Shown: positions 1 through 12,384 of the stretch, in pieces | How positions within the stretch are numbered: position 1 is the stretch's first letter | Layout of the letters: each line of letters starts with the position of its first letter | NCBI GenBank assembly: GCA_034408725.1 | Contig: JAWXCN010000154.1 | Location: 1 to 12,384, forward strand | DNA: 12,384 bases | Direction: 5' to 3' | Source: Candidatus Hydrogenedentota bacterium | Lineage (GTDB): Bacteria; Hydrogenedentota; Hydrogenedentia; Hydrogenedentales; SLHB01 | Position numbers and translations under genes: made by a program | The notes under the pieces: generated by a model | What the model was told of the DNA's origin: nothing | Databases searched by the model: none | Seen by the model: the letters and a program-made list of their open reading frames with translations, nothing else

Positions 1-1
1 G

Positions 2-1375
2 ATGTGCGCGTTCGGAAGCACGCGCCACCCGAAGTCCGCGGTTGAAGACGACGCAAACCTCAAAGCGCTGCTCGCCGCCGGCACCGAGATCGTCACCATC
101 TTCGCGAAGTCCTCGCGCGTGCAGGCGAAAGAAATCTTGCGCGTATCTCTCGATGAAAATGTCAAACTCACAGGCGAATCCGTAGCGTATCTCAAAGCGC
201 AAGGCAAACGCGTGTTCCTCGATGGCGAACATTTTTTCGACGGATTCTTTGATGATTCGGAATACGCGCTATCCGTGCTCGAAGAATCCTGGCGCAACGG
301 AGCGGAAGTATTGATCCTTTGCGACACCAACGGCGGACGCCTCCCTTCCGAAATCGCGCATGCCACTCGCGCGGTGATTGAGCGCCTGCCCAAAGCGCCG
401 ATCGGCATCCACGCGCACAACGACGCGGGCTGCGGTGTGGCGAACAGTATCGCCGCGGTCGAAGCGGGCGCGGTACACATCCAGGGCACGATCAACGGCT
501 ACGGCGAACGCACCGGCAACGCCAACCTCACGACGATTATCCCGACGGTGCAACTCAAGATGGGCGCGAAACTCGTCAGCGACAAACAACTCGCGAAACT
601 CACGCACGTCTCGCATCTCGTCGCCGAACTCGCGAACATGAACCCGCGCGATTCCGATCCCTACGTAGGCCGCGACGCATTTACGCACAAAGGCGGCATG
701 CACGCCGACGCAGTCAACAAACTCAAATCCAGTTACGAACACATCGAACCCGAAACTGTCGGCAACCGCACGCACATCGCCGTGAGCGAAGTGTCGGGCC
801 GCTCGAGTTTGTTGCAAAAAGCCGCGGACTTCGGCATCACCCTCGAGCGCGATGCAGCCGAAACGCGCGACGTGCTCAAGCGCGTAAAAGATATGGAAAG
901 CGAAGGCTACGAATTCGAAGGCGCCGACGCCTCACTCGAACTGCTAATGCTCCGCGCAAAAGGCCACGACAAAAAATTCTTCACGCTCCTCGGCTACCGC
1001 GTCAGCGTAGAAACATCAGACGGCAACGGCGACTCCAAATCCGAAGCCACCGTCAAAGTCGAGCTGCCCGATGGCCAGTGCGTACACACCGCGGCAGAGG
1101 GCGCCGGGCCCGTTGACGCCATCAACAACGCACTCCGTAAGGCGCTCGAAGGCAAATACCCCGAACTCGAAAAAGTCCACCTCGAAGACTACAAAGTCCG
1201 CATCCTCGACGGCCAATCCGCCACCAGCGCCAAAACCCGCGTCTTCATCGAATCCACCGACGGCGACACCGAATGGGATACCGTAGGCGTCTCGGAAAAT
1301 ATCATCGCCGCATCGGTGCATGCATTGCTGGATAGCATTGAATACAAGCTCTACCGTACAGCGAACAAGACATAG
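2..1375 (+). CDS. cimA: Citramalate synthase (LeuA/CimA family, DRE-TIM metallolyase with C-terminal LeuA regulatory domain); 5' end lies outside the window
   Basis: Motifs AFGST, DGEHFFDGF, LCDTNGG, GIHAHND, GTINGYGERTGNANL, YVGRDAFTHKGGMH, GYEFEGADASLEL and DYKVRIL are typical of the bacterial CimA clade. The ORF is open to the window edge. Confidence 0.9.
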   Translation: MCAFGSTRHPKSAVEDDANLKALLAAGTEIVTIFAKSSRVQAKEILRVSLDENVKLTGESVAYLKAQGKRVFLDGEHFFDGFFDDSEYALSVLEESWRNGAEVLILCDTNGGRLPSEIAHATRAVIERLPKAPIGIHAHNDAGCGVANSIAAVEAGAVHIQGTINGYGERTGNANLTTIIPTVQLKMGAKLVSDKQLAKLTHVSHLVAELANMNPRDSDPYVGRDAFTHKGGMHADAVNKLKSSYEHIEPETVGNRTHIAVSEVSGRSSLLQKAADFGITLERDAAETRDVLKRVKDMESEGYEFEGADASLELLMLRAKGHDKKFFTLLGYRVSVETSDGNGDSKSEATVKVELPDGQCVHTAAEGAGPVDAINNALRKALEGKYPELEKVHLEDYKVRILDGQSATSAKTRVFIESTDGDTEWDTVGVSENIIAASVHALLDSIEYKLYRTANKT

Positions 1376-1389
1376 TATTGGCCACGAGC

Positions 1390-1420
1390 AACTTGAAGTC
1401 GCAGTTTACGACTTCAAGTT
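1390..1420. terminator. Perfect 12-bp hairpin between convergent cimA and SDR genes; probable (possibly bidirectional) terminator or REP-like palindrome
   Basis: AACTTGAAGTCG-cagttta-CGACTTCAAGTT, starting 15 nt after the cimA stop; only a short T-run follows. Confidence 0.55.
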
Positions 1421-1498
1421 TACAACCTATTGATGCGAAGGTGGATATGACGAGTCATGGCACCTACCGAGGTCTCCCCACCCCCGATCACCCAGCGC

Positions 1499-2359
1499 TT
1501 AAATGGCCTTGTCCATAAACTTCAAGATGAGCACATCGCGCCAGCGATCGGGCAGCTTGGCAAGGAGCATTTGGATTCGGGCGTCTTTACCGACGAGGTA
1601 GCGGGTTTTTGGTTTTGCGGCGGTAAGCGCATGGGCGACGGCGTCGGCGACGACTTGGGCCGGCACGGCGGATTTTGCAGTTTGGCTTGCGCCTTTTTTT
1701 ATCATGGCGACAAGCGGCGCGTACAACTCCATCATGCGTGGCGGCAACGAATCTAGCAGGGCGTTGCCGGCGGCAACGGATTTTTCCCAGATCGGCGTGT
1801 CGATCGCGCCGGGTTGGACGAGCGCGACTTCGATGCCCCAGGGTCGCAGTTCCATGCGCAATGAATCGGTAAGGGCCTCCATTGCGAATTTTGATGCACA
1901 GTATGGTCCCCCCATAGGAATGGAGAGGCGGCCGCTTGTGGATCCAATGTTGACGATCCGGCCATGTGACGCGCGCAACGGTTCCAGAAATGCTTGTGTA
2001 ACGGCAATCTGGCCAATGACATTGACCTCGAGTTGTTGCCGCAATTTGTCGAGGGGGACAAATTCAAGTGGCGCGTTTATGCTGATGCCCGCGTTGTTCA
2101 CGAGTCCCGCGAGACCGGATTCGCCGGTGGTGGCTTTCACGGTGTCACGCGCGCTGATAATGGACGCTGCATCACACACATCGAGATATATCGCGGTGAA
2201 ACGGTCCGATGCCTGCGATTTTAGAGCATCGCCGTCGCTGTCTTTCCGCACGCCGGCGAACACCCGGAATCCGATACGGTCGAGGTGCAATGCGCATGCA
2301 GCACCGATTCCGGTCGATGCACCGGTGATAACAACTGCGCCTCGGGAGTGGGTAGTCAT
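1499..2359 (-). CDS. Classical short-chain dehydrogenase/reductase (17beta-HSD/RDH-like)
   Basis: TGASTGIG cofactor motif, LVNNAG, catalytic S and YCASK (YxxxK), 286 aa. Confidence 0.93.
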   Translation of the reverse strand: MTTHSRGAVVITGASTGIGAACALHLDRIGFRVFAGVRKDSDGDALKSQASDRFTAIYLDVCDAASIISARDTVKATTGESGLAGLVNNAGISINAPLEFVPLDKLRQQLEVNVIGQIAVTQAFLEPLRASHGRIVNIGSTSGRLSIPMGGPYCASKFAMEALTDSLRMELRPWGIEVALVQPGAIDTPIWEKSVAAGNALLDSLPPRMMELYAPLVAMIKKGASQTAKSAVPAQVVADAVAHALTAAKPKTRYLVGKDARIQMLLAKLPDRWRDVLILKFMDKAI

Positions 2360-2418
2360 TATTTCAAATCCTTTCGTGATTTGCAGCGCGAAGCGCCTTG
2401 GAGATACTGTTGTTTTTT

Positions 2419-2751
2419 TTAAGAGGGATTTAATCTCTTTTTGTAATTGGGGTCATAAGGTATTCCTGATACCAGAACGCCGCGCAGTTCCAAGCCGGCG
2501 ATGGCCCGCACGAACCAATGGGAATAAGCTCCGGTTGATTCAATGCACACGCCCAGGCACTCCCCCGCCTTAAGCGCCGGGGCAAGCCAATGGGCCAATT
2601 CAGGGATGCCTTTGGCATCGTTGGCCAAATGCCGTACCTCCAGCTTTGCCCATTCTGAAGTTTGAAAATGCAGGCCCGCCACGCACACATCAACCGTCGC
2701 CTTGGCAATGTCCACACCAATCCAAAAGCCGTCCTGCAATCGCTCCATCAT
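2419..2751 (-). pseudogene. IS110 transposase/recombinase remnant: N-terminal part of the RuvC-like DEDD domain fused in frame to the extreme C-terminus
   Basis: WIGVDIAKATVDV (first catalytic D) and VCIESTGAYS (catalytic E) are IS110 N-terminal motifs; RGVLVSGIPYDPNY resembles the IS110 C-terminal tail. The later catalytic D..D pair and the Ser-containing Tnp domain are absent. Start taken at ATG 2751 (GGAG 9 nt upstream); the ORF caller gives 2766. Confidence 0.85.
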
Positions 2752-2779
2752 CGTGTTACACTCCATTTCATTACACGAT

Positions 2780-2946
2780 ACGTCCGAAAGGGCGGCCTAC
2801 TTGTTGGGATACGAGCTTGGTATCGTCACCAGCTCCCGATACTGTTCACCGTCCTTCGGACACAAATGCAAATAGGCCTGATGCGGGAATCTCCAAATCG
2901 AGCTGTTCTACTAAACGCTCCAGTGCGGCATCCCTGCATCAGGCCC
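2780..2946 (-). ncRNA. IS110 bridge RNA (target-binding loop followed by donor-binding loop)
   Basis: Two long hairpins with internal loops. Target loop: closed by GGCCTGATGC/GCATCAGGCC (2875-2884/2936-2945), LTG TGCCGCACT (2930-2922), RTG TTTGGAG (2897-2891). Donor loop: closed by GTCCGAA/TTCGGAC (2782-2788/2855-2861), LDG ACAGTATC (2845-2838), RDG ACAAG (2804-2800). The guides match the flanking target and the element's own end junction. Confidence 0.88.
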
Positions 2947-2950
2947 TGTT

Positions 2951-2956
2951 ACTATA
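2951..2956 (-). promoter_or_regulatory. -10 box (TATAGT) of the predicted circle-junction promoter driving bridge RNA/transposase
   Basis: On circularisation TTAAAA from the right end (2422-2417) lies exactly 17 bp from TATAGT in the left end: TTAAAA-aaaacaacagtatcttg-TATAGT. Confidence 0.6.
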
Positions 2957-3092
2957 CAATTGCGGTAGCGGTAGCTACCGCTTTCAGTTTAAGACTCCAG
3001 CAGCGCCCCGCATCAGTCCAGACCACGCGCAATCCGAAGCGAAAGGGGTAGCTGCGTCCGAAGTGGACTGCGCTACCGCAGTCCAAGGCGCT

Positions 3093-3119
3093 GGAGTGCA
3101 GCGCGTAGCTGTCGCTTTT
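3093..3119 (+). repeat. Degenerate REP copy
   Basis: GGAGTGCAGCGCGTAGCTGTCGCTTT keeps the GGAGT foot, an imperfect stem and the CGCTTT tail. Confidence 0.5.
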
Positions 3120-3265
3120 CCTTCACACAATTACGGTTACATCATAATCAAGTGGGATTGCCCCAATGGACAAGGCAAGTGCCTGGTATATGCGCACCCT
3201 TGCGGGTATCATAAATACGCGCCAATACAGGCTGCGGCTGCATACGCGGAGGGTGGTGTTCAAGC

Positions 3266-4141
3266 ATGGCTATCGACCGCGAAGAGATCGACAAGCTCCA
3301 TGAAGAAGCTAAACGGGTCCGGAAAAACTTCCGGTACATCATTCAGGACCTGAAGCGCTCTCCCGAAAATATCGATCTGCTGCGTCAACGCGAGCACCTC
3401 AAAAAGCGTTACGACCAGATTCAAACCATGCTCACCGACGCGCGCGAAGCAAGGGACGCCCTCCTGGATGATGAACCGGAAGGGCAAGAAGTCCCGCAGA
3501 TCGATATGTCCATCTTCGAGCCAAAACCCTACGAGGTTCCCGTGGCGGTCGTGGTGCAGCAGAGGACAGCCTCGGCTCGCACTGGAGGGTCACCACTCAC
3601 ATTCAAGAACGTACGTATCGCTATTACGGCCGCGCTCCTGCTGGTATTGGTTCCGTTTTTCTACCTCTATTTCATGCGCAACATGCGCTTCTACGAAGTG
3701 CCGACACGGTCTATGGAACCTACGCTCCAGGCCGGCGACCGCATCATCGCCGTTGAACCGTCCCAGTACGCGCGCGGCGATATTGTCGTGCTGAACGACC
3801 CGCAAGCCCCCGGCGACTACCTCGTCAAACGCCTCGTCGCCTTCGCGGGCGATTCCATTGAAGTGGTCAACGGCGCACTACTGATAAATAACCAGCCCAT
3901 TGACGAACCCTATATTCGTGAACGTATGGAGTACATCTTCGGACCCGTTACGGTCTCCAATGAAGAAGTTTATCTGCTGGGCGACAACCGCAATGAAAGT
4001 GACGACAGCCATATCTGGCAATCCGGACGGCCCCTCTCCGAACTGCGCGGACGCGTCCACTTCATTTACAGCCCCTCGTCGCGCCGGAGCAGCCTCGACA
4101 ATCAGCGGGCACGGTTTCACGACGTCAAGTCGCCAGACTAG
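3266..4141 (+). CDS. lepB: Signal peptidase I (S26A) with long N-terminal cytoplasmic extension
   Basis: TM helix (IAITAALLLVLVPFFYLYF), catalytic Ser box PTRSMEPTL, RGDIVV, catalytic Lys YLVKRLV, LLGDNRNESDDS. Confidence 0.92.
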   Translation: MAIDREEIDKLHEEAKRVRKNFRYIIQDLKRSPENIDLLRQREHLKKRYDQIQTMLTDAREARDALLDDEPEGQEVPQIDMSIFEPKPYEVPVAVVVQQRTASARTGGSPLTFKNVRIAITAALLLVLVPFFYLYFMRNMRFYEVPTRSMEPTLQAGDRIIAVEPSQYARGDIVVLNDPQAPGDYLVKRLVAFAGDSIEVVNGALLINNQPIDEPYIRERMEYIFGPVTVSNEEVYLLGDNRNESDDSHIWQSGRPLSELRGRVHFIYSPSSRRSSLDNQRARFHDVKSPD

Positions 4142-4411
4142 GCAATCAAAAAGGCCCGTTCCGCTTCCGCAATCCAGTCCTCCTCCCCAAAAACATAATC
4201 ATTCCTGACTATTTGGTGTTTACGGCCCAACTTCTTTTGTTGTTCTGCGCCCAGTTTTGCCAGCTAGATTCTTATCGACAAACAAGTTACATAGTTTTTA
4301 GACTTGGCCCGCATTTTGCTCACTTAATGAAACTCTGGCTGCATGAACGGACTGTGCAGATAAGCGACGATGGCCGTGCTGGGAGCGCGGCCCAAGAAGG
4401 GCTCCGCATTG

Positions 4412-4654
4412 ATGAAGATGATCGAATCGAACGAATTCCGTCAACAAACGATTTTGTTATTGCAGGAGATGAGTACGGCGCTGCGATATCTCTCCACGGA
4501 AATTGACAGCGCCGTTGTCAGCGAGCGCAAGGTTGACCACGATCTCCTGCGCCGCATTTCGCAAGCCTTGCAGAAGCAGCAGGGCCATTTGCTCAAAATC
4601 GCCGAATCGTCCGACCCCTATCGCATGCGCCGCGAAGTAGCCGAATCACGATAA
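4412..4654 (+). CDS. Small helical hypothetical protein (~80 aa)
   Basis: Plausible composition with amphipathic helices; start uncertain (4370, 4412 or 4418). Confidence 0.55.
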   Translation: MKMIESNEFRQQTILLLQEMSTALRYLSTEIDSAVVSERKVDHDLLRRISQALQKQQGHLLKIAESSDPYRMRREVAESR

Positions 4655-4658
4655 CCCC

Positions 4659-4773
4659 GGGACTGTCCCTCCGAATCCGCGGCAGTATTCGGATTAGCAG
4701 GGACTGTCCCTTTACCGCAGGCAACGTCCCATTACGTTCCCGTGGCAGTACGCGGATTCGCAGGGACTGTCCC
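4659..4773. repeat. Three GGGACTGTCCC palindromes; the last two sit in a 30-bp direct repeat
   Basis: GGGAC-T-GTCCC at 4659-4669, 4700-4710 and 4763-4773; 4681-4710 vs 4744-4773 are 27/30 identical. Confidence 0.8.
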
Positions 4774-4845
4774 GTGTAACTGAAACTTGTGGGTCCGGGT
4801 GGAGCGTGGAAGCAGTCAGGAGCACTGCTTCCACGCTTTTAGTTT

Positions 4846-6183
4846 TTACGACGCAAGCCGTGGCGCAGCGTCTGCGCTCGCATCCGCGGGGCGTTGTGTC
4901 GAATCCATCGGGCCCGGATTCCCCGCGGTGCTTTCCGGGACTGCTTCGCACACGTACCGTTTGCTCAAGAACGCGCATGCCGCGCCGAGGACACCCGTTG
5001 CAATAAAGCACGCGTAATACCCTGTTTCGTGCAGATGATCGATGACATACCCGGCCGCGATCGGCGGCAACGCGACCGCCATCGACGTCCCGATACTCCA
5101 AATGTTGGTGTAAAGCACGCGCCGGTCCCGTGGCACATACCCCAGCATGGCCCGGTTACCGGCAACGTTGTAGGCCGCGTTGAACACGCTCGCAATCACG
5201 AAGACTATCCACAGCATAGGTGGCGTATACCCGGCCGTCGGCGCGAGCAGCATGCAGGCCACTGCGCACGCCGCGTGCCCGAGCATGGACCAAAACATCG
5301 CCGAACCGCTCCCGGCATAGTCCGCAAAACGGCCCCACGCGGCAATCGTAAGGAATATGCCCAGTGCCCCCGCCGCCGTGACGGCCATGATGACGCTCGG
5401 CTGGAACATTAGAATCTCGCGCATGAACAGTATCAGCGAAGAACCCAGGAGCAACGCGAGGCTCGCATACCCCAACGAGGCGGTAAACACGAACGCCATA
5501 AACGAGCGATCGCGAAACGCCATCCGATAGCCAACGTAAGAACTATGTGTGCTCGGAACACTTGCCGCTTCGCCCCCGGGGATGAGCGCCATCCACACCA
5601 GGCTGACTAGACCCGCCCCGATCCCGATGGCGTATACCATCAGAAAACGCCACGAGCTGACTTCTCCGAACAGCAGGGCCGCCTGGATAAGGGCAACCAC
5701 CACACTGGTCAACTGCGTAACCGCCGCTTCCATGCTGAAATACGTGCCCCGCTGAACGTCCGGCACAAGCTCGTGCAGCCACGGCAACCACCCGCCCGCG
5801 CCCATCGCCCGTAACACACAAAACGCCAGCACTGAACCAACCAGCAGGTACTGCGCGTACCGCAGCCCCCATGTCGTTGCCAAAGGAATGAAAAACACGG
5901 CGCAGGCCAGCAGGTTTCGCAAAAGCCAGCCCGCGAACATGACCCGCTTCGGCCCGTAGTGGTTCACCAGCGGAACGGTAAGGCCCACCAACAGCATCGA
6001 CAGGGGCATAAAGGAAATAAGGAAACCGATGAGGGAAGCCTGCATCTCCAGCGACCGCGCAAAAAGTATCAGGGCGGGGCCGACAATGCACTGCCATGAA
6101 ATGACATTGAACACAATAAAAAACAGAAAACGCCGGGGACCGGCGTCCAGCTTACTTAGCCCGCTTATCAGTGGGATTCCCAC
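4846..6183 (-). CDS. MFS transporter (about 12 TM helices)
   Basis: About 12 hydrophobic segments; motif-A-like NHYGPKR and GRFADYAG. GTG start at 6183 preceded by AAGGA; the ORF caller extends to 6219. Confidence 0.85.
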   Translation of the reverse strand: MGIPLISGLSKLDAGPRRFLFFIVFNVISWQCIVGPALILFARSLEMQASLIGFLISFMPLSMLLVGLTVPLVNHYGPKRVMFAGWLLRNLLACAVFFIPLATTWGLRYAQYLLVGSVLAFCVLRAMGAGGWLPWLHELVPDVQRGTYFSMEAAVTQLTSVVVALIQAALLFGEVSSWRFLMVYAIGIGAGLVSLVWMALIPGGEAASVPSTHSSYVGYRMAFRDRSFMAFVFTASLGYASLALLLGSSLILFMREILMFQPSVIMAVTAAGALGIFLTIAAWGRFADYAGSGSAMFWSMLGHAACAVACMLLAPTAGYTPPMLWIVFVIASVFNAAYNVAGNRAMLGYVPRDRRVLYTNIWSIGTSMAVALPPIAAGYVIDHLHETGYYACFIATGVLGAACAFLSKRYVCEAVPESTAGNPGPMDSTQRPADASADAAPRLAS

Positions 6184-6368
6184 GGTTCCGTCCTTTTCTA
6201 CCGAAAAACAACAACACACCCTTGCCTATGCCGTGTATATGCATCCTTTCCGGACCGCATTTGGTGGCAAAACGGCATTCGGCATTAAACGGCCTAGATT
6301 ACACGAAAATCCCGCCAAAACGGTAGCGAAAGTTTGTGCGGAGAAAATTGAGTGGATGCGCGTGAACC

Positions 6369-6451
6369 GCCTTGGACTGCGGTAGCGGAAATGCCTTGGA
6401 CTGCGGTAGCGGAGTCCGCTTCGGACGCAGCTACCGCTTTCACTTCGGATT
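6369..6451. repeat. Partial REPIN (GGAC-type half) preceded by a duplicated REP 5' part
   Basis: 6393-6451 is 56/59 identical to 10754-10812; GCCTTGGACTGCGGTAGCGGA occurs at 6369 and 6393 (24-bp period). Confidence 0.85.
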
Positions 6452-6550
6452 ACTCTTTTGCTGCGGACGGCACCTTCGCTTCGGATTGCAGGCTGTTTAT
6501 GGAAGAATGCGCTGTCCAAGCACAGCAAAGGGTAGGCCATCTGTGATAAA

Positions 6551-6675
6551 CAGCCAAAGCGGCGCCTTGGGGGCCGCCGCAGTCCAAATAGGCTTCTTTC
6601 CAAAACATTGGTTTTCGGAGAAGGATTATTTGGACTGCGGTGGCGAAGCGGGTAGCGCAGACACCGCTTTGGCTG
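6551..6675. repeat. Inverted pair of variant REPs
   Basis: CAGCCAAAGCGG...CCGCAGTCCAAATA (6551-6590) and TATTTGGACTGCGG...CCGCTTTGGCTG (6627-6675) are inverted counterparts with different loops. Confidence 0.8.
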
Positions 6676-6755
6676 GTTATGGGCGATGGCTTCGTGCGCA
6701 CCTTAAGCGTAGACCAACTGGGCGAACAGTAAAACCGGCAGCGCCTCCCCACAGA

Positions 6756-7259
6756 CTATGGCGAATACCGGTTTTTCGGGGTTGGGTCTGGGCGTTTGAC
6801 GGCGCGCCGGCCCCGCTTATGTTTCAACGCCTCATCCACGCTCGCCAGCAAATCCGGCTCGTTCGCTTTGGGCCGTTTCATCCGCTGCTCGCGCTCGCGA
6901 ATTTCGCCCATCAACTTTGCGGCGTCGCCGAACGCCTTGTTCAGCATCAGCCGGCAATGGAAGCAATAGTCCGCATGTTTTTGCGCGGGCCGCTCTTTGC
7001 ACGCGGCGCAAAGACGATCCGATTCGATTTCGTGGGATAACAGCGTGCTGTTCTCAACCAGCTCGATTACTTTTTCGAGGGGCACGCCCGTGAACTCCGC
7101 GATTTCCTCGGGCTTGCGCAACCCGTGTTTCTCGATGGCATCCAGCACGCGATCCCCGTATTCGAGAAATTCCGTATTGCACCTCGCGCACAAATTCTTG
7201 CCCGGTGTTTCGGCAAATATCTTGCCACACCTCGGACACTTCGATAGTTTATTCGCCAT
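6756..7259 (-). CDS. YvyF/TIGR03826-like protein: zinc ribbon - HTH - zinc ribbon
   Basis: CPRCGKIF..LCARC, then EEIAEFTGVPLEKVIELV (HTH-like), then CAAC..YCFHC. ATG at 7259 overlaps the coaE 3' end; the ORF-caller start 7460 lies inside coaE. Confidence 0.72.
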   Translation of the reverse strand: MANKLSKCPRCGKIFAETPGKNLCARCNTEFLEYGDRVLDAIEKHGLRKPEEIAEFTGVPLEKVIELVENSTLLSHEIESDRLCAACKERPAQKHADYCFHCRLMLNKAFGDAAKLMGEIREREQRMKRPKANEPDLLASVDEALKHKRGRRAVKRPDPTPKNRYSP

Positions 7260-7851
7260 GCCCGTGAAGCTCCTCGGCGAGCGCGTCGACGCGCGCGTAC
7301 AACGCATCCTTGCTCCCCGTATTCTCAATGACCCAATCCGCCAGGGCAAGTTTGCATTCCGGTGGCGTCTGCGCGGAAATCCGTTTGCGCGCCTCCGCTT
7401 CGCTGAGCCCGCGATGCTCGACCAGCCTGCGCACGCGTTCGTCCTCCGGACACAGCACAAGGATCAATCCGCTGAGGTACGCATCTTTCACGCCCTTGTC
7501 CGCGATCAACGCGGCATCGATCATCACCATCGCATTCCCCTCTTCCGCCAGCGCGGCGCACTTGAGGGCAATCGTCATGCCGATGGCGGGATGCACGATT
7601 GCGTTGAGCCTGCGCAACGCCTCCGGGTCCGTGAACACACGCGCGCCAAGTTTGGCGCGGTCAATCTTTCCATCCGTGAGGATTCCACTGCCAAACGCAT
7701 CCAACACGTCTTTCTCCGCCGCGCCACCTGGCGCAATAACTTCGTGGCCGACCGCGTCCGCGTCGATGACGGGTACCCCGTGTTTTGCAAACTGGCGCGC
7801 CACCTCCGATTTTCCGCTACCCGTCCCTCCTGTTATTCCATAAATTCGCAT
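7249..7851 (-). CDS. coaE: Dephospho-CoA kinase
   Basis: GITGGTGSGKS P-loop, VIDADAVGH, IDRAKLGARVF, LNAIVHP, RISAQ, ADWVIEN. Confidence 0.96.
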   Translation of the reverse strand: MRIYGITGGTGSGKSEVARQFAKHGVPVIDADAVGHEVIAPGGAAEKDVLDAFGSGILTDGKIDRAKLGARVFTDPEALRRLNAIVHPAIGMTIALKCAALAEEGNAMVMIDAALIADKGVKDAYLSGLILVLCPEDERVRRLVEHRGLSEAEARKRISAQTPPECKLALADWVIENTGSKDALYARVDALAEELHGHGE

Positions 7852-7879
7852 GGGGGTTATTGCGCCAACACCATCTTTT

Positions 7880-8021
7880 TCGTGCTCGCGCTCGTGCTCG
7901 TAATCGTGCTCGTGCTCGTAATTCGATCTTGATAAATTCTCGATGCGTTGTCGAACTTCAGGAGGGGATCGAAAAATCGATTACGATTACGAGCACGAGC
8001 ACGAGCACGAGCACGAGCGCG
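7880..8021. repeat. Inverted arrays of hexamer repeats (TCGTGC/TCGTAA)n ... (TTACGA/GCACGA)n
   Basis: Seven TCG(TGC/CGC/TAA) units at 7880-7921, seven complementary units at about 7981-8022, and a unique ~55-bp middle. Confidence 0.85.
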
Positions 8022-8044
8022 ACGGAATGCAGCGTCTATCCCCA

Positions 8045-10681
8045 TCACCGTCCACCCGGGCGGGGCAACCGGACCGTTGCTCCCCGCGTTTGCGCGATCG
8101 CGATCTTCAGAAGATTCCCCGCCAGAATCGGCTTCTTGGGTATGATCTCGACAAGTCGCTCGCTGCCGTCATAACCAAATATATGGTCCACCTGCTCGAT
8201 GCCATCCGCGCTTTCGCACACGATACTGATATCTTCGACCTCGTTCGGCACGCGAAGAACAATCGTCTTCAGATAAACGGGGCTGTCGAACGTGAGATGT
8301 ACGTACTGCCGGTACCCGCGTTCGTCATCTTCACGAAATTTTACCCATCCAAAACTGATCGGCGTGAACAACGGCGCGCTGAGCATGAACACCCCAATTG
8401 GCAAATGCGGCCGCAACCACAACGCGCCATCGGGCGCATTAAACTGAAACCCCTGTAACGCATACAATACGTGCCACGCGGACAACGACCCCATGTGCCG
8501 GTCTTGCGCCCACCCGCACGCGTTATTGGCTTCGAGGTCCCACATCATCGGCTGGTTAAACACGCGGCCCCGGCGCGCATGAATATTTTTGCAGTTTTTC
8601 TGCACCGAAAACAGTCCGCGATCCGGGTAGCCATGCGTGATCATCAGGCTCGCGTAATACGCGGTGTCGAACGCAGGCCACGCCTGATCCGCGCCCGGCG
8701 GAAACCCGAGCGCAGGCGGGTTCTCGCATGGCGAGCCGTCCGGCATGACACCGTGCGCGACTCCGTTGCGCTGATCGTTGAGTTTGCAGATTGCGCCCAG
8801 CGCCTTCTTCACTTTCTCCTGCGGGAACAACTGTCCCAAACACAAGAAATCCGCGTACCACTGTCCCGCCAGTTGCGCGGCATCGCACGCCTCATTGCGT
8901 TCCATCGGCGCGCCGAACATCCCCTCGGCGGAATAAAGACGGTAGTATCCGCCTTCTTCATTCCATAATTTGCGATCAAAACTTTCCAGCGCGCGGGGCA
9001 ACAGCTCTTCGTACTTGAGCGCCTCTTCCTTGTCGCCCAACCGCCGCGCCAGACGTCCATACGCCCTCAACGCCGCGATCCACAGGCTGCTAGTGTAGCT
9101 GTTCACGCCATACACCGCCCAGGTATCGCGTGTCATCGAGCAACCCGACTGCTCGGGCAGGCCGTCGCCGTCCTGATCATGTTGCAGTACATAAGCCATC
9201 GCGTCGCGCAGTCGCGGCATGAGATGATCAAGAATAAACCGCTTGCCCGTCATCATGTAATTGCGGTACGCCGTCAACACGAAAACAATGCTCGTATCAA
9301 GCATCGGGTCGGGCGTGTCCCCGTGCGAGGGCTGGTGCATGCACTCCATGCCGAGATACCGGAAAATGCGCCCCGCATTTTCTTCGTCCCTTGGCCGGGC
9401 AATGCACGTCAACTCGCCTTCTTCAAAGTTTGGAAAGAACAACAGCGACCCAATCGAGCTGTACAGATGCCGGTCAAGCGTCGAAGTGCGCGGAGCCGCC
9501 GGCGACTCGAACATCGCGAAATCGTTGCCCTTGGTGTACAGCGTATTGGTCGACAACACGTAGTTGTTGTTGATCAACATCTTGCTGAACCATTGCGGCA
9601 ACGTCGACGTCATTATCCGCCGTTGCCAGTCTTCGACCGCCTTAAAATAATACCGGTGATAGGTGAGGCCCTGCGTGGCCACCTCGATCGCGTTGCGAAA
9701 CGGGTTGGCGTATCCATTTCCATGATCGAGGTCGTTGATAATATAGCGCGGGCAATACCACGCCAGCGCATACACGACGCTGCGGGATTGTTGCGGCCCC
9801 AAATCAAACGACGCGCACAACGCCCCGGAATGACTTGATTCGTTACGCGAAAGGTTGTTGCCCAACCGCCCGCTGTCATGAAACTGGTTCCAGAACACTT
9901 CGAGCTCGCGCGGGTCGCGTTCGTTCCACCCCAACATCGTCACTTGCACTTCCCGCTGCTGGCCGATCAACAAAGCATAGTTGCCTTCCGCGTTCGTGCG
10001 GAACCCGTCGCGAAAACCGAATTCGAGGCCGGCAATCAGCCGTTGATTCGGATCGACCGGTTCGGGTTCGTTCTTTTTGTCCTGATCACGGCTGACCAAC
10101 ACCGGCCGGATCGGGCCGCGCCGTTCGGGAAACAGGCCGCGCGCGCACCCGCACAGGTTCTCCCAATTCACGACGACCGAAACATCGTAAGAAACGTCCG
10201 AGGGATTGTTCACAAAGAACGACATCAGGATTAGCGGGAGCGTGCTCGCTTCATGGTCATAGGGAATGATCGGCGTCAGTGCGCTCCACGTGAGTTCAAG
10301 TGGAAACTGCGGGTCCTCGAGTTTGTAATGCGAACACGGATACACCCCGCGCCACGCCAACCGTTGCGACGCGGTATACGGCGCGACAATTCCCGCATCG
10401 GTGAACGGCAGCGCGCTATCGGTTTGAAGCAGCCGCAACGCGACTTTCCCGCGCCGCGCCGCGCGCACGCCAACCAACGATCCCGCGGAGACGTCAATGC
10501 GCGTTTCGGCCGTGCGATTATTATTAATCGTGATGTTCCGGAACCGCCCATCCCGGCCCAGCTCGCAGCAACCCGCGCCAACGCCGCCCAACGGCACCCC
10601 GGCGGTTTGCTGCTCAGACTCCGCCGCGTCCATCGCGTCGTTAAAATACGTCGGCGAACCCTGTGACACCCTAACCTCCAT
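8045..10681 (-). CDS. GH116 family (GBA2-like) glycoside hydrolase, divergent
   Basis: N-terminal GVPLGGVGAG, PIIPYDHEASTLP, ALAWY; catalytic domain FAMFES, TLDR, DQDGDGLPE..TRDTW..GVNSYTSSLWIAAL, LWNEEGGYY, QLAGQWYA. Start could be 10634. Confidence 0.88.
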   Translation of the reverse strand: MEVRVSQGSPTYFNDAMDAAESEQQTAGVPLGGVGAGCCELGRDGRFRNITINNNRTAETRIDVSAGSLVGVRAARRGKVALRLLQTDSALPFTDAGIVAPYTASQRLAWRGVYPCSHYKLEDPQFPLELTWSALTPIIPYDHEASTLPLILMSFFVNNPSDVSYDVSVVVNWENLCGCARGLFPERRGPIRPVLVSRDQDKKNEPEPVDPNQRLIAGLEFGFRDGFRTNAEGNYALLIGQQREVQVTMLGWNERDPRELEVFWNQFHDSGRLGNNLSRNESSHSGALCASFDLGPQQSRSVVYALAWYCPRYIINDLDHGNGYANPFRNAIEVATQGLTYHRYYFKAVEDWQRRIMTSTLPQWFSKMLINNNYVLSTNTLYTKGNDFAMFESPAAPRTSTLDRHLYSSIGSLLFFPNFEEGELTCIARPRDEENAGRIFRYLGMECMHQPSHGDTPDPMLDTSIVFVLTAYRNYMMTGKRFILDHLMPRLRDAMAYVLQHDQDGDGLPEQSGCSMTRDTWAVYGVNSYTSSLWIAALRAYGRLARRLGDKEEALKYEELLPRALESFDRKLWNEEGGYYRLYSAEGMFGAPMERNEACDAAQLAGQWYADFLCLGQLFPQEKVKKALGAICKLNDQRNGVAHGVMPDGSPCENPPALGFPPGADQAWPAFDTAYYASLMITHGYPDRGLFSVQKNCKNIHARRGRVFNQPMMWDLEANNACGWAQDRHMGSLSAWHVLYALQGFQFNAPDGALWLRPHLPIGVFMLSAPLFTPISFGWVKFREDDERGYRQYVHLTFDSPVYLKTIVLRVPNEVEDISIVCESADGIEQVDHIFGYDGSERLVEIIPKKPILAGNLLKIAIAQTRGATVRLPRPGGR

Positions 10682-10750
10682 TAAAAAAACCGGACCAACT
10701 ACAGCGCGCGCCCAACAGCGCTCAAATCAAATCCGCCCTAACGCGCGCGG

Positions 10751-10890
10751 AGCGCCTTGGACTGCGGTAACGGAGTCCGTTTCGGACGCAGCTACCGCTT
10801 TCGCTTCGGATTGGAAGCGGTCTGGACTGATGTGAGGTGCTGCTGGTCTCTTGAAGTGAAAACGGTAGCTACCGCTACCGCACTCCAAAG
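10751..10890. repeat. Intact REPIN (GGAC-type REP, spacer, inverted GGAG-type REP) just downstream of the RAYT
   Basis: CCTTGGACTGCGGTAAC...GCTACCGCTTT ... AAACGGTAGCTACCGCTACCGCACTCCAAAG; homologous over its full length to the IS-interrupted copy. Confidence 0.9.
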
Positions 10891-10928
10891 CCACGCGTAC
10901 CAATTGCTCAAACCCATCCACCTCCACT

Positions 10929-11496
10929 TCACCAATCCCCCGAAACCTCGTAATCATCTTTTACATTCACCGTATCCGCCTTGAACCGGTAGATACTCCT
11001 AACCTGCGCCGGCGCCGCTACACGTTCAAACCACGCCGCTGAACCAATCATACTGATTCGCGACCGCAACGAGCCCATGCTTCACGGCGTTCTGGTGAAC
11101 GTAGTTCAATCGCGCCAGATACGATTTCTCATACGTCAACTGGGTTTCGCGAAAGTTGTACCAAACTCTTCTGCCTTTCGCGTCGTCGAGCCGGTTGACC
11201 CATAATGCCAGCTTCGAGTGAAGCTCCATCGATATATTCGACAAACTCGCCGCAGTTTCCTCTTCAATAGGAGAATGCGCCACGAAATGATAGTGGTTGG
11301 AAAATACCGCCCAAGCTTCGACGCGCCACCCATATTTTTGTGTGACTTTAATAAGACCGCGTTGGAGAATGGCCAACCGCTCTGCGCCTCGAAAGTGTTG
11401 CTCCTGGTTATAAGTGCTCGCCGTAACAAAAAAAGTCCCTGACTCGGAGAGCTGATGCACTGGCGCGTGTGGCCATGGAAAAGAAGTTTCGCTCAT
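10929..11496 (-). pseudogene. REP-associated tyrosine transposase (RAYT, HUH Y1 / IS200-IS605 superfamily) with a frameshift near 11043
   Basis: FFVTAST, AWAVFSNHYHFV (HUH), VWYNFRET, YVHQNAVKHGLV..Y.W (catalytic Tyr region). The called ORF stops at 11026, but another frame continues SAAWFERVAAPAQVRSIYRFKADTVNVKDDYEVSGDW* to 10929. REPs flank both sides. Confidence 0.85.
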
Positions 11497-11548
11497 GTGC
11501 GCAATGCTGTCACACCTCTGTTCTCGCCGCAACATGCCTTCGCATACT

Positions 11549-11880
11549 CCCAAAGCGGTAGCTACCGCTACCGCACTCCAAGGCGTCGAACTGCGGCGAA
11601 TCAACCTTGGACTGCGGCGTGTAAGCGCCGCTTTCACTTCATCCATACCGATCGCCGCGGATCATGTGGAAACCAAAGCCTATCGCCACCCCAAAGCGGT
11701 AGCTACCGCACTCCAAGGCACCGAACTGCGGCGAATCAACCTTGGACTGCGGCGTGTAAGCGCCGCTTTCACTTCATCCATACCGATCGCCGCGGATCAC
11801 TTTGCAAACCGCGGATCACGTGGAAACCACAAGCCTATCGCCACCCCAAAGCGGTAGCTACCGCTACCGCACTCCAAGGC
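11549..11880. repeat. BIME-like array of alternating inverted REPs (A-B-A-B-A) upstream of the RAYT
   Basis: A = AAAGCGGTAGCTACCGCTACCGCACTCCAAGGC at ~11552, ~11693 (6 bp shorter) and ~11848; B = CCTTGGACTGCGGCGTGTAAGCGCCGCTTT at 11605 and 11740. The linkers are also repeated. Confidence 0.93.
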
Positions 11881-12342
11881 TCACGTCAAATGTTTCGTCA
11901 TAATCAGCGCGTCCTCGTCCGTGGTCGGATAGTATCGGCGCCGGCGTCCCGTGACCAGGAACCCCATGCTTTCATACAAACTACGCGCGCGCACGTTCGA
12001 CTCGCGCACCTCGAGTGTCGCCGCCAACACGCCATTCGTTTTCGCCGTCTCAAGAATGTGCTGCAACAGCCGCCGTCCGTGGCCAAGGCCGCGGTGTATG
12101 TCGCGAATGGTGACGCTCGTGATGTGCGCTTCATCCAGTAACGGCCAATATCCGCCGTAGCCGATCAATTCGCCCCCGATTAGCACCACGACAAACTGTG
12201 ATCGCGGATGCGTGATCTCCTCACGAAACATTCCCTCGGTCCACGGTTCCGGATACGCCTCCTGCTCGATCAACAGAATTCCCGGCAAATGCTCCTCCGC
12301 GATGCGTTCAAAGCGAAGCTCCGTTTTCTCCGATACACTCAT
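11881..12342 (-). CDS. rimI: Ribosomal protein S18-alanine N-acetyltransferase (GNAT)
   Basis: IEQEAYPEPW, EAHITSVTI, RGLGHGRRLL (acetyl-CoA motif A), LEVRESN..A..LYE..GF...GRRRRYY...EDALIM. Confidence 0.93.
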   Translation of the reverse strand: MSVSEKTELRFERIAEEHLPGILLIEQEAYPEPWTEGMFREEITHPRSQFVVVLIGGELIGYGGYWPLLDEAHITSVTIRDIHRGLGHGRRLLQHILETAKTNGVLAATLEVRESNVRARSLYESMGFLVTGRRRRYYPTTDEDALIMTKHLT

Positions 12343-12383
12343 CGCGACACTTTCGCGCGCGCCACTTCCGGCTGCGACATGCG
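12339..12383 (-). CDS. tsaB: 3' end of upstream gene, probably tsaB (t6A biosynthesis)
   Basis: Frame RMSQPEVARAKVSR* ends in an ATGA overlap with rimI. RxSQxE resembles the TsaB C-terminal YLRxSQAE motif, and tsaB-rimI adjacency is common. Confidence 0.55.
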   Translation of the reverse strand, partial: RMSQPEVARAKVSR

Positions 12384-12384
12384 C

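Follow-up and report, generated by a model that had tools for sequence, protein, structure and literature searches.

In the IS110-family insertion sequence IS621, the recombinase is described as a RuvC domain (residues 1-122, with catalytic D11, E60, D102 and D105), a coiled coil that mediates dimerisation (residues 123-188) as well as a Tnp domain at residues 189-326 carrying the catalytic S241 (PMC11208158). The bridge RNA is reported to act in trans, a minimal 22-bp donor being sufficient when the RNA is supplied (PMC11208160), and excision is described as requiring the recombinase and read-through transcription that yields the bridge RNA, by authors who do not exclude trans action between IS621 copies (PMC13626964). 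Deletion derivatives and IS110 loci with a truncated recombinase are already known: a survey of the family reports such derivatives at insertion sites (bioRxiv 10.64898/2026.08.14.744561), and a derivative with a truncated tnp gene is reported to form minicircles when full-length copies are present (PMC12288879). Here we describe an IS110 locus in a stretch of 12,384 nucleotides from a Candidatus Hydrogenedentota bacterium (assembly GCA_034408725.1, contig JAWXCN010000154.1, positions 1 to 12,384 of the forward strand), referred to below as the window. It holds a 555-bp internally deleted element related to IS621 and ISCro4 on the minus strand at 2404..2958, which we consider with good confidence to be a single, non-autonomous and stranded copy, probably an immobile relic.

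The 555 bp of the element compare with 1243, 1244 and 1245 bp between the termini of three full-length relatives. Its ends were set against the full-length DNA relatives L029 (a 1257-bp contig), L041 and L042 (two metagenome contigs) and against the uninterrupted consensus of the repeat in which it lies, and the interval 2402-2960 proposed in an earlier note on this DNA coincides exactly with the element plus the two copies of its core dinucleotide. The open reading frame (ORF) inside it runs from 2766 to 2419 on the minus strand in its longer, 115-residue form; public gene calls begin at the sixth codon, a methionine at 2751, and give a 110-residue protein (P0004, 2419..2751). Compared by BLASTP with P0001, a 339-residue IS110 transposase that served as our reference recombinase in both BLASTP and tblastn comparisons, the longer form aligns in two collinear pieces: residues 6-94 match P0001 1-89 without a gap (51/89 identical, E 3e-32), and residues 94-115 match P0001 318-339 (13/22 identical, E 2e-6). 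About 228 codons are therefore absent in frame (about 228-229 codons, or ~688-690 bp, corresponding to P0001 codons ~90-317), as the same note had held in describing a non-autonomous element with some 90 N-terminal residues joined to a tail of about 20.

What remains of the gene is thus the first part of a RuvC-like DEDD domain (codons 1-89, 2485..2751 on the minus strand), in which the first catalytic Asp (GVD) and the Glu (CIESTG) are retained, fused to 21 codons of the recombinase C-terminal tail (RGVLVSGIPY..., 2422..2484, minus strand). The tail was placed by BLASTP and codon alignment; a MAFFT alignment misplaces it and was not relied on. Codon alignment puts the junction between Leu89 and Arg90 in the relatives' numbering, at 2482..2487 on the minus strand; the join proposed earlier is real, and 2485-2495 had first been suggested for it. 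In the relatives, the two breakpoints have no more than about 3 nt (TGC) in common, which is weak evidence for microhomology, coming as it does from relatives and not from the true parent, and no direct repeat was found at the junction.

Domain models see the fragment only in part. PF01548 is matched over profile positions 1-77 of 155, with 23.8 bits against a 29-bit cut-off, NF033542 is matched at E 3.7e-8, below the model cut-off, and PF02371, the C-terminal Tnp domain with the catalytic Ser, has no match in the ORF, only the last 22 residues of that domain remaining. Descent from the IS110 family is nevertheless clear from protein similarity, since three 339-residue relatives that carry both PF01548 and PF02371 are 52-57% identical to the ORF over 77% of the query; P0001 in turn matches the solved recombinases of ISCro4 (E 1.7e-43) and IS621 (E 8.1e-41). 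Judged by alignment, the window product has lost the second Asp pair and the Ser loop, as had been noticed before, and the entire coiled coil as well. With these parts gone, the predicted 110-residue product cannot be a recombinase. A functional compact recombinase, comparable to the 201-residue enzyme of the compact active element in the 2026 survey preprint (10.64898/2026.08.14.744561), was considered and rejected for a 110-residue product that has neither the Asp pair nor the Ser. Interference of the product with a full-length enzyme, another suggestion of the earlier note, appears unlikely as well, since the dimerising coiled coil (IS621 123-188) falls within the deletion and the RuvC fold is cut short.

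In contrast to the coding region, both ends of the element are kept. The right end (RE; 2404..2422, minus strand) comprises ACAGTAT (2404-2410), an A-run and TTAAAA (2417-2422), a degenerate -35-like box overlapping the stop codon, and the left end (LE; 2951..2958, minus strand) comprises TGTATAG with a -10-like TATAGT (2951-2956). The full-length relatives have the same termini, ...AACAGTAT in the RE and TGTAT... in the LE. Read along the strand of the element, the arrangement is ...GCTACCGCTACCGCA-AT-[TGTATAG ... ACAGTAT]-CT-CCAAGGCGC..., with a core copy CT on the RE side (2402..2403, minus strand), as in all four full-length relatives with flanks, and AT in place of CT on the LE side (2959..2960, minus strand). 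The LE-side AT is a small correction to the CT of the earlier note. In IS621 the two promoter halves, a -35 in the RE and a -10 in the LE, are described as coming together only in the circle (PMC11208158, PMC13626964). The corresponding promoter of the window element would read TTAAAA-17-TATAGT, matching 9/12 positions, against TTGACA-17/18-TATGAT (11/12) in L029, L041 and L042; the element of genome G040 has TTGAAG at the -35 place. The Shine-Dalgarno sequence is ATGGAG in the window and AAGGAG in the relatives, these promoter and Shine-Dalgarno comparisons having been read by eye from the alignment. The AT core, the weakened TTAAAA and the ATGGAG may be viewed as mild signs of decay or handicap. 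The 14-mer that would mark an RE-core-LE junction has 0 occurrences in the assembly.

The element interrupts a repetitive extragenic palindromic (REP)-like repeat. The locus is not syntenic in four sister genomes of the genus, none of which has an orthologous empty site, and the REP consensus was therefore used in place of an empty-site comparison. The repeat unit, about 165 bp long and with 54 BLAST hits in the source genome (G000, a draft of 5.17 Mb in 280 contigs, 92% complete), lies at 2961..3125 on the plus strand; its left half-site is the insertion target, and the remaining half-site, which reads CCAAGGCGC on the strand of the element, is found to the left of 2402. Among the 54 hits, 32 reach the left end of the unit and are listed, namely the window's own and 31 other copies. 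Across the insertion point 25 of these 31 read ...ggag/TGCGG, with the equivalent of CT at the position of the LE core, and the ...ggag that precedes the unit is exactly the sequence left of 2404 in the window. Because the two flanks of the element are the two halves of the REP consensus, it interrupts one REP copy at CCGCA-CT-CCAAGG. The insertion is site-specific, with no target duplication beyond the core.

Such sites are abundant in this genome. There are 153 occurrences of the 11-mer CCGCACTCCAA, where composition predicts about 3.4, together with 96 of the commonest REP variant (GCCGCACTCCAA) and 12 of a variant with an AT core (CCGCAATCCAA). The AT on the LE side of the element may be a later point change or the footprint of an insertion into an AT-core REP copy; in the second case, staggered strand exchange around the core, as described for IS621 (PMC11208158), would have joined unequal cores into heteroduplexes that segregated to the target type on one side and the donor type on the other. 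Within the window the REP core palindrome has 5 copies against 0.05 expected, and the REP-like family occupies 2961-3125, 6372-6600, 10751-10957 and 11455-11871. An ORF at 11026-11646 on the minus strand, flanked by REP copies, matches the model of the REP-associated tyrosine transposase (RAYT), NF047646, at E 2.2e-20 with 73 bits, under the 80-bit cut-off, and has no Pfam match at E 1e-5. By this similarity the repeats are probably a true REP family that forms, together with the ORF, a REP/RAYT system.

The left end also contains a complete bridge RNA, at 2782..2945 on the minus strand, with a target-binding domain (2875-2945) and a donor-binding domain (2782-2861). The 177-nt region from 2946 to 2770 on the minus strand gives a fold of two stem-loop domains, both of which enclose a large internal loop, at -75.3 kcal/mol, compared with -54.2 +/- 4.2 for 200 shuffles (z -5.0; 0/200 shuffles as good). 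We aligned it with the corresponding regions of L029, L041, L042 and the G040 element (L044), whose recombinase is 49% identical to P0001. The consensus structure of these five elements has 50 pairs, 5/50 of them with compensatory changes on both sides; the window forms all 50, the full-length elements 47-49. An Rfam scan of the window (E up to 1) gave no match, although Rfam 15 may hold no bridge-RNA family.

All four guides can be assigned within this RNA, each on the minus strand. The left target guide (LTG), UGCCGCACU at 2922..2930, matches the flank TACCGCA plus the core, and the right target guide (RTG), UUGGAG at 2891..2896, is the reverse complement of the right flank CT+CCAA at 6/6 positions. 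The left donor guide (LDG), AACAGUAUC at 2838..2846, is identical at 9/9 positions to the RE end plus the first core base (2403-2411), and the right donor guide (RDG), ACAAG at 2800..2804, is the reverse complement of the core CT plus the LE TGT (5/5) and is invariant in all five aligned elements. The LE-side AT is the exception to this agreement between guides and core. The single LTG mismatch among 7 positions places a guide G opposite a bottom-strand T, a wobble, and with this G the guide matches the commonest REP variant, GCCGCACTCCAA, exactly. These matches, together with the termini shared with the relatives and the 50 paired positions, bear out the view of the earlier note that ends, bridge RNA and all four guides had been kept.

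Across the five elements the left guide and the 7-nt left flank co-vary, while the sequences themselves differ from one element to another. The guide UGCCGCA of the window faces the flank TACCGCA (6/7 identical), CACCGCA in L041 faces TACCGCA (6/7), GGGCGCA in L042 and CGGCGCA in L029 face identical flanks (7/7 each), and AUCCGCA in the G040 element faces TCCCGCA (5/7). Two of these full-length relatives, from other sources, lie at ...CCGCA-CT-CCA... sites within REP-like hairpins (L041, 300-345 and 1560-1593; L044/G040:C9, 1255-1300 and 2510-2560), with left target guides altered to match those sites. On this basis the insertion sequence lineage appears to track one REP superfamily across hosts.

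The age of the deletion can be bracketed only loosely. Over the 89 N-terminal codons, the ratio of nonsynonymous to synonymous divergence (dN/dS) is 0.18-0.22 between the window and its relatives and 0.14-0.22 among the relatives, although with dS about 2 the values are saturated and one pair gave no estimate. In the bridge-RNA alignment 11 window-private differences fall at columns invariant in the other four elements; 2 of the 11 are in paired columns, both giving G-U pairs, where 100 of 189 columns are paired (hand-calculated binomial P about 0.02). Low dN/dS and untouched RNA stems suggest that the window lineage diverged mostly at a time when its element still functioned. A recent deletion would explain this, and so would a constraint that still acts on the RNA; the data cannot separate the two.

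No second copy, parent or helper was found. When the element DNA was searched against the source genome, only the self match covered the element, the other 26 of 27 matches covering the REP flank alone, and a more sensitive local blastn gave no second copy either; the full-length parent or further copies with the same junction that had been proposed for a BLASTN search are thus absent from this assembly. PF02371 had 0 matches in the source genome, whereas the control was positive in 6/14 reference genomes. The sole PF01548 match was the ORF fragment of the element itself, and tblastn with P0001 gave nothing further below E 0.08. An autonomous partner was therefore not found in the 92%-complete draft by PF02371, PF01548, the ORF, P0001 or L029 DNA. 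As far as these data reach, we find a single copy and no parent recombinase, which is what the earlier note had expected of a dead relic.

Wider searches gave the same picture. Among 61 genomes searched with the ORF, the source included, 6 match (G000 among them) and none of the four of the same genus; a P0001 search of 135 genomes from the phylum gave matches in 21 (E <= 1e-20), G000 being included in both numbers, with none of the four same-genus genomes among them and a best match of 49% identity. A near-length search of 5.8 billion cluster representatives for a protein with the same junction returned, besides the protein itself, three N-terminal fragments that have no tail; the P0004 entry there lists 4 contigs, and one further contig of identical sequence was found in a metagenome scan. 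With HMMER, 1.84 billion representatives yielded 49 hits; apart from the protein itself, the best was 57% identical and the next full-length one 42%, and the six shortest, on examination, were fragments or frameshifted forms, none with the tail. Plasmids, E. coli genomes, viral contigs and phages, searched for a closer parent, held no match. The metagenome scan recovered three loci, one of them (L040) identical to window 922-4266; a parent sharing the N-terminal motifs would have been caught in that collection, and there was none.

A possible further trace of the lineage was seen in a sister species. In L043, at about 1567-1598 (G004:C6:27366-27397), a 32-nt stretch is identical at 29/32 positions to the left end of the element, a match that takes in the left target guide as well as the 5' arm of the target-loop stem, and it adjoins a REP-like GGAG/TGCGGCAGC. 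No recombinase lies near it, and by its sequence the stretch looks like a more eroded relic of the same insertion sequence lineage.

The element occupies the divergent intergenic space between a short-chain dehydrogenase/reductase (SDR) gene (1499-2359, minus strand, PF00106) and a signal peptidase I gene (3266-4141, plus strand, PF10502). The SDR start codon (2359) is only 42 bp downstream of the right end, in the same orientation, and any drive on the SDR gene from the REP side is now 555 bp more distant (window 2360-2403). A scan of 2250-3300 on both strands for sigma-70-like promoters, with the element in its integrated state, found none that passes. In the four sister genomes of the genus the SDR gene is 68-74% identical. 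Elsewhere in the window, two short hexanucleotide tandem arrays that are reverse complements of each other (7880-7922, TCGTGC x6.7; 7989-8022, ACGAGC x5.7) sit in the intergenic stretch between dephospho-CoA kinase and GH116 genes.

We infer the following order of events from these parts. An IS621-like element adapted to the host REP would once have been active in this lineage, and bridge-RNA-guided recombination would have placed a full-length copy of about 1.24 kb at the CT core of one REP. Some 690 bp, covering codons ~90-317, would then have been lost by illegitimate deletion with at most ~3 nt of microhomology, the in-frame outcome being no more than the 1-in-3 expectation of chance. What is left today is the left end with the whole bridge RNA, a catalytically incompetent 110-residue fusion and the right end. 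No functional copy remains detectable, and as the genome shows no recombinase of this family the copy is stranded; excision or movement would be possible only with a compatible recombinase supplied in trans. The cis requirements are retained and a helper was not detected, and there is no sign that movement in trans has occurred.

Several observations weigh against reading the copy as a stranded relic. Multi-copy insertion sequences often fail to assemble or bin, and in a draft of this completeness and contig number a helper may for that reason have been missed. The 96-153 matching target sites would be ready destinations if a recombinase appeared. Prolonged neutral drift is not visible in dN/dS, itself saturated, and the undecayed bridge RNA and open ORF, which fit a very recent deletion, fit continuing selection on the RNA equally well.

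It is against this background that a mini bridge element mobilised in trans has to be judged, that is, a 555-bp form moved by a full-length recombinase elsewhere in the cell or population while it supplies its own bridge RNA in cis. Such movement is possible in principle, since the cis parts are kept (ends, LDG/RDG, and LTG/RTG that fit a REP with 96-153 sites) and there is published precedent in the trans activity of bridge RNA with a 22-bp donor (PMC11208160), the trans action left open by the IS621 authors (PMC13626964) and the minicircles of a truncated-tnp, ISPpu9-derived form resembling a MITE (miniature inverted-repeat transposable element; PMC12288879); the incompleteness of the draft would allow for the enzyme. 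We nonetheless regard it as unlikely here. Some 100 or more targets fit the guides, yet a single copy is present; the assembly holds no recombinase of this family; and the metagenome collection that yielded the identical contig gave no parent sharing the N-terminal motifs, nor did the protein collections searched give any same-junction protein. The LE-side AT is mismatched to the guides, the -35 of the junction is weakened, and truncated-recombinase elements are reported as inactive in the junction assay of the 2026 preprint (10.64898/2026.08.14.744561). The MITE-like role suggested in the earlier note, whether mobilised in trans or donating guide RNA, thus finds no support in copy number, genome content or protein collections. 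Broader still, the idea of a natural recombinase-less bridge element, made up only of its ends and a fully programmed bridge RNA and either maintained by selection or mobilised in trans by a recombinase that resides elsewhere in the population, seems to us decidedly improbable.

A domesticated function, in which selection keeps the orphan bridge RNA or the 110-residue fusion, for instance as a regulatory RNA next to the SDR gene or to inhibit IS110 elements that arrive from outside, would account for the 50 intact pairs, for the stem-sparing distribution of private changes, for the open ORF and for the position just upstream of, and co-oriented with, the SDR gene. Yet changes older than a recent deletion would spare the stems just as well, the element is absent from all four genomes of the genus (4/4, the locus not being syntenic there), the region shows no sigma-70-like promoter and the protein is without the coiled coil used in dimerisation and is missing half of the RuvC fold, so that we hold this to be very improbable. 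Almost no credence can be given to the deletion being an assembly artefact or chimera, an option that had been raised beforehand, in which the true locus would hold a full-length element whose middle the assembler skipped. Repeats can indeed collapse in short-read metagenome assemblies; here, no repeat at the junction could join its two sides or collapse an assembly. The join is collinear and in frame, and no leftover contig with the missing 690 bp was seen in the genome or in the metagenome scan. The deletion is moreover present in a second assembly, L040, a metagenome contig of 5336 bp (against 12384 bp) that is identical to window 922-4266 over all 3345 bp and so across the junction, although the two assemblies may share reads.

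Taken at face value a stranded, deleted copy is ordinary, internal deletion being a common decay route of insertion sequences. Its value lies in a clean natural dissection of a bridge-recombinase element, in which all cis needs survive and the enzyme is gone, and the five aligned elements add an independent case, from a lineage distant from E. coli, in which guides and their REP targets change together. Should a helper be found, the locus would offer a natural setting in which to test whether a mini element that carries its guides is mobilised in trans; if a recombinase-less bridge element of this kind did prove to be real, it would represent a guide-bearing MITE analogue for RNA-guided recombinases, redirecting its helper to about 100 REP sites. 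Without a helper, it is a record of how bridge-recombinase elements die.

In its anatomy the element follows IS621 and ISCro4 closely. The bridge RNA lies in the 5' non-coding region of the left end and has target- and donor-binding loops, the core is CT, and the predicted junction (RE end, CT and LE start) is the 14-bp IS621 donor printed in PMC13396178. As in those systems, the -35 is in the RE and the -10 in the LE, which would give a promoter only at the circle junction, and the target is a REP, as is the IS621 target ATCAGGCCTAC given in PMC11208160, which cites earlier work on REPs as insertion sequence targets. It differs in having lost codons ~90-317, which leaves it with no second Asp pair, coiled coil or catalytic Ser, in guides written for a different REP (CCGCA-CT-CCAAGG) and in the AT of its LE-side core. 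Its N-terminal part is only 57% identical even to the closest full-length relatives, and the element has no DNA-level match in E. coli genomes.

Among deletion derivatives, a word search of the open-access literature returned no description of a mini-IS110 made up of ends and an intact 5' bridge RNA. The nearest counterpart is ssr9, the MITE-like derivative of the IS110-family element ISPpu9 in Pseudomonas putida KT2440, which includes a copy with a truncated tnp and which, as described in PMC12288879, is likewise non-autonomous and REP-targeting and keeps the ends, the RNA gene and a tnp fragment; in its authors' proposal, transposase supplied in trans lets it move. According to that account, ssr9 is present in several copies beside seven full-length ISPpu9, and minicircles were detected, whereas the window holds one copy and no full-length partner. 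The ssr9 RNA is also described there as lying downstream of tnp, whereas the RNA of the window element is a 5' bridge RNA and its deletion lies strictly inside the ORF.

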